Positions 47,101 to 53,100 of a DNA stretch of 64,000 nt are shown in pieces (the first letter of the stretch is position 1; every line of letters begins with the position of its first letter). Source of the DNA: Escherichia coli (GTDB lineage: Bacteria; Pseudomonadota; Gammaproteobacteria; Enterobacterales; Enterobacteriaceae). The position numbers are program-made. The stretch lies in the NCBI RefSeq assembly GCF_003334785.1, contig NZ_QOWV01000002.1; one strand, written 5' to 3'.

Positions 47101-50100
47101 CATCAGCCCAACCAGCAAACCGTAGACGATCACCGAACCGATATCTGCGCCCAGCTTATTGGCAACATATAAAGCAGCCGGATGTGGAGGAACCACGCAG
47201 TGCACTGCCATCAATGCGGTACATAGCGGAATGGCAAGCTTTAATAATGAGGTATTGGTTTTTTTGGCAATTGAAAAAGCCAGAGGAATCAATAGCACGA
47301 CGCCCACTTCAACAAACAGCGTGATGCCACAAATCAGGCCAACCAGCACCATAATGACATCAACTGAAAGCCAGCGGCAGCGTTGAAGTGTCAGACCAAT
47401 TCTTTCTGCGGCCCCGGATACTTCCATCATTTTTCCCAGTATCGTGCCAAGGCCGATAACCGCTGCGAGGAACCCCAGCGTTCCGCCAATTCCACTTTCA
47501 ATAGCATTTACCATATCCAGTGGCCCCATGCCCATCATCGTTCCCACGAAGAAGCTGGCCAGCAACAGCGCCAGAAACGGGTGGAATTTGAACTTCACGA
47601 TGGTCAGTACAATTAACACGATGCTGATAAGCAGCGTGCTCACAACCCAGATTTGAGAGTGCATATCTCACCTTCCCCTGTGATTAACCTGATGATATTG
47701 GACAAAAAAACAACGCAGGCTGACAAACGATAAAATTTGCCTTTCACATGAGGTAAATTGCATCAATGGAGTGATTTACATCTAAAAATGAAGGTGAATT
47801 GAGATATGGTTCACTTTAGCTCATCTCATAGCTGAAATTTTGCCGCTATTTTTTTACACTTAAGCGAAAAATGAGGTGATTATGGAACCCCTTCGTGAAA
47901 TAAGAAATCGGCTGCTTAACGGCTGGCAATTATCAAAAATGCATACTTTTGAAGTGGCTGCCAGGCATCAGTCCTTCGCCCTGGCGGCAGAGGAATTGTC
48001 GCTGAGCCCCAGTGCGGTAAGTCACCGTATCAATCAGCTGGAAGAAGAATTGGGCATTCAGTTGTTTGTTCGTTCCCATCGCAAAGTGGAATTAACGCAC
48101 GAGGGGAAACGTGTTTATTGGGCGCTAAAATCGTCGCTGGATACCCTGAACCAGGAAATTCTTGATATCAAAAATCAGGAGTTATCGGGAACGTTAACTC
48201 TGTATTCCCGGCCCTCTATCGCCCAATGCTGGTTGGTGCCCGCATTAGGTGACTTTACACGCCGGTATCCGTCTATTTCGCTCACCGTGCTCACTGGTAA
48301 TGACAACGTCAATCTGCAACGTGCCGGAATCGATTTGGCGATCTACTTTGATGATGCGCCGTCAGCGCAACTCACTCATCACTTTCTGATGGATGAAGAA
48401 ATCCTGCCAGTATGTAGCCCGGAATACGCTCAAAGACATGCTTTAACCAACACGGTAATTAACCTGTGTCACTGTACGTTGCTCCATGACAGACAGGCAT
48501 GGAGCAACGACTCCGGTACGGATGAATGGCATAGTTGGGCGCAACATTATGCGGTTAATTTGCCGACATCTTCTGGAATTGGCTTTGATCGTTCTGATTT
48601 AGCTGTTATTGCCGCGATGAATCATATTGGGGTGGCGATGGGAAGAAAACGCCTGGTACAAAAAAGGCTTGCCAGTGGTGAGCTCGTCGCGCCGTTTGGC
48701 GATATGACGGTGAAATGCCATCAGCATTATTACATCACCACATTACCGGGCAGGCAGTGGCCAAAAATTGAAGCGTTTATTATCTGGCTAAGAGAACAGG
48801 TAAAAACCACTTCATAATGAATAAAACCACGAGTTCCTGGTGTGCCTTATTCGGCCTGCTAGTTCGAATTTAATTTACGGTTTTTATGTGGTTTTAGGGA
48901 TAAACACAAGGATGGTGTCCCCTGCAGACATCTACTTGGAGTGGCAGGGGATTGATTAGAATGGTGTTTTTTAGATGTGAGAAATATTTTACCCGCTATT
49001 TTACCCATTAGCGCGGCTTAAGAGCTTATTTTTGAATTCACAATGGTCACGATATAACCATCTTGCGCGTCCGTGGATAACTTTGGCTTTTGGCAGGTCG
49101 CCGGACTTAATCCGGTCATAGATGAAGGTTTTACCGAAGCCAGTATCAGCCATGATGAATTTCAAATCAACCAGTGAATCAGGCTGTAGTTCGTGTTGCA
49201 TGAGTGCTATCTCCGAATAGGGAATCGAACCTGCAAATCAGGCAATAAAAAACCGCCATCAGGCGTTTTTGTGTTCTTTCAGTTCTTCAATTCGAATATT
49301 GGTTACGTCTGCATGCGCTATCTGCGCCCATATCATCCAGTGGTTATAGCAGTCGTTGATGTCCTCTGCTTCGATAACCCTGTCGAATGACTCTCCATTC
49401 CATTCACCTGTGACTCGGAAGTGCATTTATCATCTCCATAAAACAAAACTCGCCGTAGCGAGTTCAGATAAAAGAAATCCACGCGAGTGCGAGGATTGTT
49501 ATTCACCTTTTACGGCAAGTTGCAGGTTAGCCACGGTTAACCTCCAGTTGTGGTGCTGCCTCAAGAGCAGCCCTGTAACCAGCAGCATGACCGCGAAAGT
49601 TAGCAATCTCTGATAGCCACGCTTTAATCATGGCCTGAGTTGGTTCCTTCGGCACCATAACCCAACCATCCTGAGTTACCGGAGAGTTGCCATCCAGCGC
49701 GTTCAACTTGTAAGCCTGGCTTACAGGTTCGGCACTATGAAGCATGGCAGCGCGGCAGGCGTTCCAGCCTCTCACCTCTGCAATAGCGGCAACAGCATCG
49801 ACCGCGTACATTTTAAGAGGGTTAGGCATTGGTTTTTCTTCAGGTACTACTGGCACTGGAGGGGCGGCATAAACAGGAATAACGTCCGATTGATCTTTAT
49901 TGCTTTCATCCGTTAAAGCCCAGAATAATTTCCCGGCCGGATGTTTGAAAATATAAGCAACAGGCTCTGCTTCCAGTGATGCCAGCACGATACGCGCCAG
50001 CTCACGCACAACTTCCGGCGGCGCGTAACGGTCATTCAGGTCATCCCACAGACGTAGCATGTTATCGCTACCAGGGTGAACATCCTCGTTAGTTCCGGCA

Positions 50101-53100
50101 AGCGCACTAATAACCTCATCGGCTGCCTCAATAATTTTCAGCGCTTGTTCTCTGGTAATAGTGGTCATTTGTTAATCCTCAAAACTTTATGCCCGGGCGC
50201 AAAAGCACGCGTTTTGTCTTTGCTTATTCGCCACCCGTCTTTACGGGCCTCTTTTGCACAGCCAGCCCATGACGTACCTATATACTCACCGAAGTCTGGC
50301 GTCTTATATTTGCCATCTGTACACTGGAGGCAATCACAATAGAGATGCATGGTGTAACTTGCAGCGATAGCCATATCACTCTCCTTTGATGCGAATGCCA
50401 GCGGCGCGTGGCACATTAACTTCCACGATGCGCACAGTTGGTTTGTACATCTCAATCGCTGTCAGCCAGTCAGCTCCTGTCATGCGCTTTTCCGCATCGC
50501 CATTACCCATCCCACTCAATACCATGACAAGTTCAACCTAAACGTCCAAACATCAGTGGTTCTTGATGGCATTAATGGCCTTACAGTTTATGCGGATAAT
50601 GATGTTGAATTTAATACTGATCATCCTGTCTACAGAGAAAGAGTAGTATTTGGTGTGTTTAATGGGAAAAATAATACATTTAAAGGATTTAACTGGAATA
50701 GTAACTTTACAGACTACAGTATATCTCCTACTGATACTGAGCATAAGATACAAGAACACTGGAAAGGTTTTGTGTTTGAAGGTTGTTCTTATAATAGCGT
50801 AAGGAAAAATAATGTTAATGCCTGCCATGTTTTCGTGCTGGCTGATAACATCAATCTATCAACAAATCTTCAGAATAAAAATATTCAAGTGATTGAAAAC
50901 AAACTTAAATATGTTGTTAATTATTGTTTTCTTTCAAGAGCTTTGGAGTGGTATGTTTTTGACAAGAATGAAGTTTCTTTTCAAGGCAGAAAGTGGCATA
51001 CGTTTGGTGAGGCAGCAGCGCCAACAACACAAACAAAGCATATTCGCATATGCGACAACAAATTTACTGATCAGATTGCTCAGCAAGCATGCATAACACC
51101 AGGACCACATATCGAAAGTGGATTGATCAGTGGAAACTTCTGCAAACGGCATTACGGAATTTTCATTGAGAATGGTAGCACCTCAAATCTTATTATCACT
51201 AATAACACCAGTATTAGTACTGGTGAAAGGGATGATACTGCTCATATTCTTCTTGTTGGTGAAGTCGATGACCAGCCTATAGGTAACTCACCACATTCAA
51301 ACGTTTTAATTTCTAACAATATGTTTCAAGGAGGAGGAGAGTCCATCAGAGAATATAATACTGGAGTTTCTTTACGAACAGGATTCAGAATTATTAACAA
51401 TCAGATGGTTGACTGTAAGCCTCCTGCAATTACAAACCAATCATTTATCGGTCTTGAGTTCATAGGCAACTACCTTGTAGCACCAACAGATTTCCCTGAT
51501 CTGAGATTAGGAGGTCAGCATACAGTCATCAAAGATAACACACTGATTGGTGTAAGAATAAGAGCGAGAGATCTTGGTTATACAGTCATTGATATGAGTG
51601 TTACAGAAAATGCATTTAGGGCTAACTCTTTGGGGGATAGCTATCCAGCACTCATAGACTTCACTGAATTTACAGGATTAGTTGCAAAAGAAAATGATGT
51701 ATCAGCATCTCATTTCACCAATGTTATTGTACTTCCAGATAACTGCAATATTGCTGGGTTTAGATATCTAGGTATTACCGAAGGTCTATTAGACAATCCA
51801 TCAACTTTGTATGGTTCTAAACTACAATGTAAGCTTGGAGATATTGTATATAATAGAGAGCCATCTATATATCAAAATAAACTTTGCTGGACGTGCGTTG
51901 ATTCATCATCAAAAACATTTGGTTCTGTAACCGTAGCAATATAAATAAATGGCCCCATAATCGGGGCCTTATATTTATTCAATAAATTTAATTATTTTGT
52001 TTTTTGCTTTATCCCACACCAAAGCAGCACCAGATTTCGATAGATGAACTGCATCAGAGTATATGAATTGATAATCATTAGTCATCGTTATGCATTTACC
52101 ATCTTTGCAAAGATAATCGTATGGGTCAATAAATAGAACGTTATTATACCCATTTAGTGCACTTCTTATGGCTGAGTTCATTCGTTTGTTGAATGTATCT
52201 TTGTCGTCTGTACTCAAATATCTTGTGCATACTAGCGGTAGGTATGATGGTCTATTGACACATTTTTCTACACCGCCAACACCATCTGTGCCAGGAGGGG
52301 CCCCAAGGATTACCACTTTTTTATTATTTAAAGCAGCTATATTATTTTTAATATTATTGATGCTAAAATTAATAAATTCATTTTCATCATTGAATTTCTG
52401 TTGGTTACCCTGCGGATCACTTACCATTCCTTCATATCCTATCCACCGCATCCCAAAAATAACAGGTACATTAAATTTGTTCGAATAATCAATAGCAAAG
52501 TTCAGTCTTTGCTGGCACTTTGGATCAGGAAGTCCTGCGTAGAACGTTGTATAATTACGCGAGAAAAAACAACCATCATTCAATGATGTAATGAATTTAT
52601 GACCTTGAGAATTTACATCTATTGCATGGGCATATTGCCTTGCAAAGCTGTCACCCATAAGCACAGCTGATACTTTTGATGCCGTCTTATCTCCAATTAT
52701 ATGCGCTCCAGCATAGTACCCATTTCCACCATATTGTTGCAGATGGAACTCCCCTGAATTATTCATTTTTTGTTTAAAGTACTCGTTGACTCGGAAGGAG
52801 TACCCATTATTTTTATATATAATATGAGATACCGATAAAACACTAATAAAAACGATTGAAAAAGAAACTGCCATTTTGTTGATTGAAGATAGATTAATAC
52901 GTCTAAACTTGTTCTCAATAAAATAATAACTCACATAAGCCAGAAAAATAGAAACGGATACTATTGATGCTTTTTCGAGCGTATTGATCGGTCTGAAAAT
53001 GTAATATTTATAGAATACTAAAAGAGGCCAATGTATAAGATATACAGAGTATGAAACTATGCCAATGCTAACAAATAATTTATTTCTTAATAAGTATCCT

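Follow-up and report, generated by a model that had tools for sequence, protein, structure and literature searches.

The early accessory region of lambdoid phages commonly houses anti-defence or exclusion-type genes, and in Shiga-toxin (Stx) prophages this exo-xis or 'ea' region influences induction. Ea22 proteins are coiled-coil tetramers whose C-terminal domains are interchangeable, and they have a pro-lysogenic effect in lambda and Stx phages (PMC10834534, PMC7093339). An intS/torI recombination module is common to phages that integrate at argW (PMC2951348, PMC3509656). In E. coli K-12, the CPS-53 (KplE1) genes yfdS and yfdT inhibit DnaA-dependent initiation when over-expressed with yfdQR (PMC4776307). 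Where among these systems does an overlapping gene pair in an argW-associated prophage remnant belong? The pair in question lies in the argW-dsdC interval (~48.9-55.5 kb) of a 64,000-nucleotide stretch of the Escherichia coli contig NZ_QOWV01000002.1 (assembly GCF_003334785.1), here called the window, to which all positions refer. The two genes encode a small protein of 69 residues (p69) and a larger one of 213 residues (p213). A previous reading made from the DNA alone (the sequence-only reading) had presented them as a phage operon of unknown function, with superinfection exclusion, anti-defence or regulation as possible roles.

We consider it somewhat better than an even bet (probability about 0.55) that the locus corresponds to the distal end, now promoter-less, of an early accessory ('ea' or nin-type) block from a phiV10-like or P22-like, argW-integrating phage, cut to ~6.3 kb by a large internal deletion, with p69 as a zinc module of the phiV10 gp52 type and p213 as a protein of the gp53/EaA type. 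Both are ordinary uncharacterised accessory genes with close relatives in many phages, and nothing points to a new system. RefSeq already lists the exact proteins as hypothetical, and they are members of known, uncharacterised phage families.

Results

A phiV10-like accessory block shortened by deletion

The remnant occupies ~6.3 kb between argW and dsdC; torI marks its downstream end, and dsdC comes next (Table 1). Its interior is piecewise collinear with phage phiV10, in blocks of 93-97% nucleotide identity (blastn) that comprise the 3' end of gp48, gp52 with the start of gp53, an internal part of gp53, and the end of gp53 with the start of gp54. DNA homology with K-12 CPS-53/KplE1 is confined to the two ends, 56200-54099 (yfdC, argW, intS) and 49251-48701 (torI to dsdC), and blastn detects none between 54099 and 49251. 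This distribution fits a shared intS/torI module of argW-integrating phages.

Two truncated genes face each other head to head upstream of the pair, with their junction at 50526-50556. One is a tailspike or tail-fibre gene that matches Kagunavirus tail fibres at 57% (tblastn). The other is an ead/Ea22-like gene of which the last ~41 codons are left; these 41 residues are 100% identical to the C-terminus of phiV10 gp48 (97% by blastn at the DNA level). The GC content changes from ~0.48-0.50 across the pair to 0.31-0.39 at ~50550. The head-to-head truncated genes and the GC break mark a single large deletion that took the structural, lysis, immunity and replication genes together with the native early promoter. 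The ASCH-domain gene downstream of the pair is reduced to a stub that corresponds to residues 1-11 of phiV10 gp54 and of a 94-residue protein from the Stx phage PA4. Window positions 49558-49500 and 49505-49429 map by blastn to positions 5321-5379 and 5623-5699 of the PA4 locus, two pieces ~244 bp apart, which indicates that this gene was shortened by an internal deletion of ~244 bp. The flanks of that deletion overlap by 6 bp (49500-49505).

Which signals would serve the pair in its present place? On the minus strand upstream only two weak sigma-70-like matches were detected (50818-50791 and 50937-50908), both within the AT-rich tailspike fragment and fewer than in shuffled sequences. Without an intact Ea22 partner and without the native promoter, p69 and p213 are most likely poorly expressed passengers that form no working system in this remnant. 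Selective retention, which the sequence-only reading had assumed, is difficult to reconcile with genes that sit in a deletion remnant devoid of the native early promoter. Both open reading frames (ORFs) do point in the same direction as torI, but their proposed co-transcription towards torI is doubtful, given the ASCH stub, a terminator-like hairpin and a further ORF of 55 residues in between. The hairpin (GAACUCGC-UACG-GCGAGUU) has an 8-bp stem and a UACG loop and is followed by a U-run. The intergenic RNA folds at -31.1 kcal/mol (z = -3.6), and the hairpin region is 98.7% conserved relative to the PA4 intergenic region. A terminator at this site likely separates the pair from torI.

The small gene and its family

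The small protein had been taken as 96 residues long, starting at a TTG codon (50165..50455). We dropped this ORF in favour of a coding sequence (CDS) of 69 codons with an ATG start (210 nt in the PGAP annotation). The PHROG 926 profile matches over its full length (positions 1-69/69) to residues 28-96 of the longer ORF (E 2.8e-36), phiV10 gp52 and the PGAP CDS share the Met start of p69, and a ribosome-binding site, AAGGAG, lies 6 nt 5' of the ATG. In the ~20 nt 5' of the TTG at 50455 no Shine-Dalgarno-like sequence was seen by eye. N-terminal extensions of homologues in the databases are unlike one another, and the extension in the window overlaps, in another frame, the 3' end of the truncated ead/Ea22 gene. 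The TGA stop of the latter and the ATG of p69 are 1 nt apart (TGAtATG). Of the two cysteine motifs originally pointed out, CxxxxC (residues 3-8 of the 96-residue ORF) falls within the unsupported extension and hence outside the real protein. Both p69 and p213 are annotated as CDSs by RefSeq/PGAP in five complete E. coli genomes (for example JKHS016), in which the locus is 99.9-100% identical; JKHS016, LR-64-2 and AST198 are among the strains with an identical locus.

p69 is basic (isoelectric point, pI, 9.2) and 95.7% identical to phiV10 gp52. Homologues were found by tblastn in 430 phage records, including Stx phages, D6, Klebsiella phages, Ackermannviridae and T5-like phages. An exhaustive search among representatives of 50%-identity clusters gave 142 matches at E<=1e-3; the long, repetitive 'homologues' P0178, P0193, P0210 and P0273 were dismissed on inspection as junk repeat translations. 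A profile search returned 275 proteins. Among the 120 matches listed, almost all are 60-100 residues long, all are named 'hypothetical' and none carries a Pfam domain. The ratio of non-synonymous to synonymous substitution rates (dN/dS) is 0.05-0.09 against the copies of phiV10, PA4 and D6, which indicates a real protein under constraint in phages. Rare fusions join the p69 domain to a DNA-binding domain, HTH_17 (Pfam E 2.2e-6), or, in P0192, to a Lar-like domain (PHROG 599, E 8.4e-5). In one ORF of 134 residues (P0167) the p69 domain occurs twice in tandem, and the first copy stops before the APGH motif.

Is p69 a zinc ribbon, as had been considered possible? The second motif of the sequence-only reading, CDCxxC, comprises C13, C15 and C18 and belongs to the conserved family core; p69 carries all PHROG 926 core residues as well as a four-ligand Cys/His set. 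In an alignment of 125 sequences C13 is invariant, and Y7, L11, Y12, A43, G47, W48 and P60 are at least 90% conserved. C15 and C59 exclude one another almost perfectly: 64 sequences have only C15, 55 only C59, four both and two neither (Fisher p = 5e-28, relatedness ignored). At position 62 nearly every family member has His or Cys. The swap between C15 and C59, taken with the His/Cys at 62, would correspond to one tetrahedral metal site, which is likely C13/C15/C18/H62 in p69 and C13/C18/C59/C62 in the other half of the family. The ligand swap across the 125 homologues supports a metal site. A classical zinc ribbon, with two CxxC-type knuckles on two beta-hairpins and a likeness to known ribbon folds, is not what p69 shows. 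AlphaFold2 (AF2) models p69, without metal, at a predicted local distance difference test (pLDDT) score of 83. The predicted fold is beta-beta-alpha-beta-beta, a standalone mini-domain of ~65-80 residues. The C-terminal tails of the family are 29% Lys+Arg.

No match for p69 was obtained in Pfam (zf-dskA_traR included), NCBIfam or PADLOC, and the Ead_Ea22 signature PF13935 of Pfam is found in neither p69 nor p213. Sequence and profile searches of the PDB revealed no homologue of Ea8.5. p69 shows the marks of neither the TraR/DksA nor the Ea8.5 type. Matches of the p69 family to ZF-HD homeobox proteins among solved structures (E 0.003-0.012) cover one helix and were judged to be due to chance. 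We found no structural or functional relative of p69 in these searches and no description of a gp52-type protein in the literature on DUF551, the exo-xis region and KplE1.

A modular partner protein

The larger ORF, p213, was confirmed in the ORF listing and by direct reading of the minus strand. Its lack of a recognisable motif was likewise borne out: there is no Pfam match even at E<=10, and none in NCBIfam or PADLOC. p213 is acidic (pI 4.9, net charge -10). It matches PHROG 60 over residues 1-212 (E 1.2e-40) and, over parts of its length, 12 other PHROGs, a pattern that marks a mosaic protein. Among 7809 homologues at E<=1e-3, many are ~95% identical over residues 1-155 and then continue into a DUF551 domain. 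p213 ends instead in the module WVMVPKEPTQAMIKAW...AAPQLEVNRG, as does phiV10 gp53, with which it shares 55% identity over the full length in a mosaic of near-identical blocks. The family alignment reveals a conserved frame, N-terminal MTTITRE...LASLEAEPVA and C-terminal APQ.EVNRG, by which p213 is EaA-like and a member of PHROG 60; in place of DUF551 (PF04448; WI.vSERMPe ... THWMPLP) the alignment shows a different C-terminal module.

Relatives vary within this frame, with DUF551 or a dATP/dGTP-pyrophosphohydrolase domain as 'cargo' that replaces, or is added to, the last module. The Klebsiella phage Chronis gp54 has the gp53-type C-terminal module and DUF551 in tandem. The 'EaA' of PA4 combines a YfdT-like N-terminus with DUF551 and is followed by the same ASCH gene. 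In more distant prophages, the overlapping gene next to the p69 homologue retains an N-terminal MTKSTITRE...EPV and a C-terminal APQEVK frame around an interior that differs: 184 residues in total with no domain, 219 with DUF551, or 243 with a dATP/dGTP pyrophosphohydrolase (locus L007). AF2 predicts for p213, at a low confidence (pLDDT 52), three helices at the N-terminus, then a beta module of three strands, a linker rich in Pro and one more helix; the C-terminal third, itself of low confidence, has two short predicted helices. In K-12 YfdT, residues 1-44 align with a profile of the p213 family (hhalign probability 71%, E 3.6e-5). Homology to YfdS, YfdT or ypdJ was rejected beyond this short N-terminal profile match, with BLASTP to YfdS and YfdT at E 0.44 or worse and blastn not significant. 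YjoB, retrieved from solved structures by sequence and profile, was dismissed as a relative of the p213 family (31 residues, E 0.82).

Gene neighbourhoods

The overlap of 4 nt between the two genes, already seen in the sequence-only reading, is real: the TGA stop of p69 overlaps the ATG of p213, and AGGA lies 7 nt 5' of that ATG. This arrangement makes translational coupling plausible. The view that they are overlapping accessory genes of a phage also stands, because phiV10 gp52/gp53 have the same arrangement. The ATGA overlap is further found in the loci L005-L008, L011 and L014 (Chronis); in L005-L008 and Chronis the overlapping gene is EaA-like. Is the pair then obligate? In PA4 two other small genes lie between the p69 homologue and the EaA gene, in D6 a different gene follows 3', and in Kuttervirus BSP101 the p69 homologue closes an early gene cluster and has no downstream partner. 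These contexts led us to reject an obligate pair; p69/p213 is a frequent neighbourhood and not an obligate two-component system.

An Ead/Ea22-like gene (PHROG 250/PF13935) accompanies p69 homologues more persistently. Such a gene directly adjoins the p69 homologue in Chronis (L014) and L017/L018, adjoins it downstream in L011, and directly adjoins p69, as a fragment, in the window. The homologues with this direct contact in Chronis, L017/L018 and L011 are only 33-45% identical to p69. In phiV10, PA4 and D6 the Ead/Ea22-like gene is 1-3 ORFs away. One AFDB entry of Escherichia marmotae (A0A7L6LCT7, 310 residues), annotated as Ead/Ea22-like, contains the p69 fold at 96% identity. The recurrent adjacency and the single fusion provide the best functional lead for p69, though a weak one. 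The C-terminal domain of phiV10 gp48, the source of the ead fragment in the window, has a Walker-A-like string, SGFTGCGKSAIAG; only sequence downstream of this string is left in the window.

Other features of the remnant

Table 1. Features of the argW-dsdC interval, in window coordinates and in the order of the minus strand.
Feature	Position	Strand	Basis or remark
tRNA-Arg(CCU), argW	55449..55523		Listed on the minus-strand reading
intS	Inside from argW, beside the O-antigen acetylase		Minus-strand reading
O-antigen acetylase, 653 aa, intact	51975..53936	(-)	PHROG 6705, E 4e-152
Tailspike/tail-fibre gene, C-terminal half	50556..51944	(+)	PHROG 24092, profile positions 491-926 of 939
ead/Ea22-like gene, 3' fragment (pseudogene)	50376..50504	(-)	PHROG 250; PGAP 'incomplete, missing N-terminus'
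Unsupported 5' extension of the 96-aa ORF (TTG start)	50375..50455	(-)	Holds the CxxxxC motif
p69, 69 aa	50165..50374	(-)	PHROG 926; PGAP WP_021544674.1
ATGA overlap, p69 stop/p213 start	50165..50168	(-)	Read from the sequence
p213, 213 aa	49527..50168	(-)	PHROG 60; PGAP WP_021544673.1
ASCH-domain gene stub, GTG + 10 codons + stop (VANLQLAVKGE)	49499..49534	(-)	phiV10 gp54/PA4 match
Terminator-like hairpin + U-run	49446..49465	(-)	Terminator scan
55-aa acidic ORF	49259..49426	(-)	PHROG 676, E 2.2e-36, full length; PGAP WP_021544672.1
torI, recombination directionality factor	49001..49201	(-)	100% identical to K-12 TorI

The O-antigen acetylase beside intS is a serotype-converting moron that may still function in the remnant; its position is taken in K-12 by the gtrABS-type genes yfdGHI. 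The slot directly upstream of torI, here with the 55-residue ORF, holds an unrelated 99-residue gene in PA4 and ypdJ in K-12. The 3' end of argW (55448-55478) recurs in two partial copies around torI, at 48912-48932 and 49221-49236, both within the stretch shared with K-12. The downstream copy is the annotated attR/pawZ position in K-12. The copy upstream of torI is an exact 16-mer and may derive from an earlier integration or belong to an attachment-site (att) arm.

Between 48700 and 50800, Rfam families gave sub-threshold matches only. Two of these concern Salmonella small RNAs, STnc130 (49151-49278, plus strand; 30 bits, gathering score 55) and STnc420 (49243-49298, minus strand; 25 bits, gathering score 70); both lie just upstream of torI and are probably chance matches or distant relics. 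Other E. coli genomes contain hybrid ORFs of 88 residues (P0039, P0041 and P0042, on up to 73 contigs) in which ~32 residues from the start of gp52/p69 are followed by the C-terminal part of phiV10 gp55. These hybrids apparently arose by deletion between short FGEYI-coding microhomologies, a recurrent route of decay in other remnants.

Discussion

What would these genes do in an intact phage? There, p69 might serve in early infection as a small zinc-stabilised binding module alongside the neighbouring Ead/Ea22-like coiled-coil protein, a suggestion for which the neighbourhood data offer a weak lead. It would in effect be a detachable C-terminal domain of that protein, and could engage a host protein or nucleic acid and so tune lytic versus lysogenic development. 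Within this accessory block p213 would serve as an acidic adaptor of modular build, in this instance free of enzymatic or DUF551 'cargo'. Extended to the whole of PHROG 926, the proposal would be that of an undescribed zinc-binding mini-fold whose metal site migrated between ligand sets. The fold would serve the pro-lysogenic Ead/Ea22 coiled-coil proteins as an effector domain that can be detached and, by binding to a host factor or to nucleic acid, would sway the choice between lysis and lysogeny in phages of the lambdoid, P22-like and Uetakevirus groups, Stx phages included. We regard this wider proposal as tentative; as a whole it is more probably wrong than right.

Several observations weigh against our interpretation of the locus and of p69. 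Both ORFs are intact and conserved at 100% on 211 contigs (p213 being identical on all of them), and promoter-like sites do exist upstream, so the pair may still be expressed. Metal binding is read from sequence, and the Fisher test was made without phylogeny. A frameshift or an annotation artefact could account for the fused AFDB entry, and adjacency to Ea22 could just reflect co-residence in the same mosaic accessory region. Finally, no Ead/Ea22-like gene is present among the annotated neighbours in Kuttervirus BSP101, in L009 (a DNA-polymerase context), in L016 or in L019.

Could the pair instead block a host system or that of a competing phage, as an anti-restriction, anti-defence or superinfection-exclusion module? 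It does sit in an accessory early region, p213 is acidic, and the partner-gene slot may carry a dATP/dGTP pyrophosphohydrolase domain, as in L007. Homologues of p69 in virulent phages (Kuttervirus, T5-like) imply a function that is not specific to lysogeny. The most direct hint is the fusion in P0192 with a Lar-like, restriction-alleviation domain, but this is a single metagenome sequence and may be a gene-calling merge. PADLOC-DB v2 has no match for p69, p213, the 55-residue protein, the tailspike fragment or the acetylase, and the pair is equally without a match in NCBIfam and Pfam. We judge a defence-related role, which the sequence-only reading had suggested, unlikely. Clear homology to ordinary replication or structural proteins, named there as a result that would refute the sequence-only reading, was not found.

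Position suggests another candidate, namely that the pair modulates host DNA replication or stress physiology in the manner of yfdS/yfdT, its positional counterparts immediately upstream of torI in K-12. The profile match of the p213 family to the N-terminal 44 residues of YfdT, the YfdT ending ...QQEVK, and the presence of DUF551, the YfdS domain, in many p213 relatives all agree with this. In K-12, yfdS or yfdT is required together with yfdQR to suppress hda-185 over-initiation (PMC4776307), and sensitivity to H2O2 in the absence of yfdS is attributed to Wang et al. 2010 in that paper. p213 itself, however, has no DUF551, the DNA between 54099 and 49251 is unrelated to K-12, and the BLASTP values for YfdS and YfdT are not better than 0.44. 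The remnant also has no homologues of yfdQ and yfdR, which carry the DnaA-binding activity, and deletion of yfdQRST in K-12 is without effect on hydroxyurea (HU) resistance or initiation regulation (PMC4776307). A replication role is less probable still than a defensive one. The 4-nt overlap, the opposite charges (pI 9.2 versus 4.9) and the persistence in a degraded prophage might also bring to mind an addiction module, of the toxin-antitoxin or a similar obligate two-component type, by which the remnant is stabilised. Such a module is highly improbable: the pairing is not obligate, with unrelated genes following in PA4 and D6 and none in Kuttervirus, the domain content of the partner is variable, and no toxin-antitoxin family is matched in NCBIfam, Pfam or PADLOC. 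Moreover, other remnants often lose gp53 but keep half of gp52, as in the hybrid deletions on up to 73 contigs. A deleted, phiV10-like accessory block remains the explanation that we prefer.

For the window itself the importance of the pair is small, as these are catalogued hypothetical proteins in a decayed prophage and probably poorly expressed. The deletion map of the remnant and the corrected gene boundaries are of use for annotation. The one element with some upside is the zinc mini-domain family, itself uncharacterised, with a possible tie to Ea22. Proteins of the gp52 type are widespread, Stx phages included, and under strong purifying selection, and no relative of their fold is known. 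To define what this small zinc protein does, above all through the Ea22 link, would add to a poorly understood regulatory block, the exo-xis or 'ea' region.

Comparison with known systems

Lambda Orf73, with a TraR/DksA-type C4 zinc finger, and Ea8.5, a homeodomain/zinc-finger hybrid (PDB 2M7A), resemble p69 in being small, zinc-binding, early and non-essential proteins of the same genomic neighbourhood (PMC8614690, PMC9239242), but share no likeness in sequence or fold with it. Like Ea22 of lambda and Stx phages, p69 belongs to an early accessory block between recombination or replication genes and xis. Neither p69 nor p213 is an Ea22 homologue, and p69 is basic, in contrast to the acidic C-terminal domains published for Ea22 (PMC10834534). 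K-12 YfdT has the same place relative to torI and a C-terminus similar to that of the p213 family, but it has only 101 residues, the remainder is unrelated and there is no DNA homology. With the EaA/DUF551 proteins of lambdoid and P22-like phages, to which K-12 YfdS belongs, p213 shares its first ~155 residues at 95%, the N- and C-terminal frame, and a position upstream of ASCH and xis; it differs in having a C-terminal module of the gp53 type in place of DUF551.

PHROG 926 is a family without assigned function, Pfam model or solved structure, and the copy in the window is that of a defective prophage. phiV10 gp52 and gp53 are likewise annotated as hypothetical only. In phiV10, but not in the window, three small ORFs lie between ead and gp52, the ASCH gene and the gp55 regulator are intact, and the block is situated downstream of the replication genes with its native promoter. 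Still, phiV10 (Uetakevirus; NC_007804, PhiV10p52/p53) and the window share one gene order: an ead/Ea22-like gene, then the 69-residue gene, then a mosaic gene of ~220 residues, and then ASCH.

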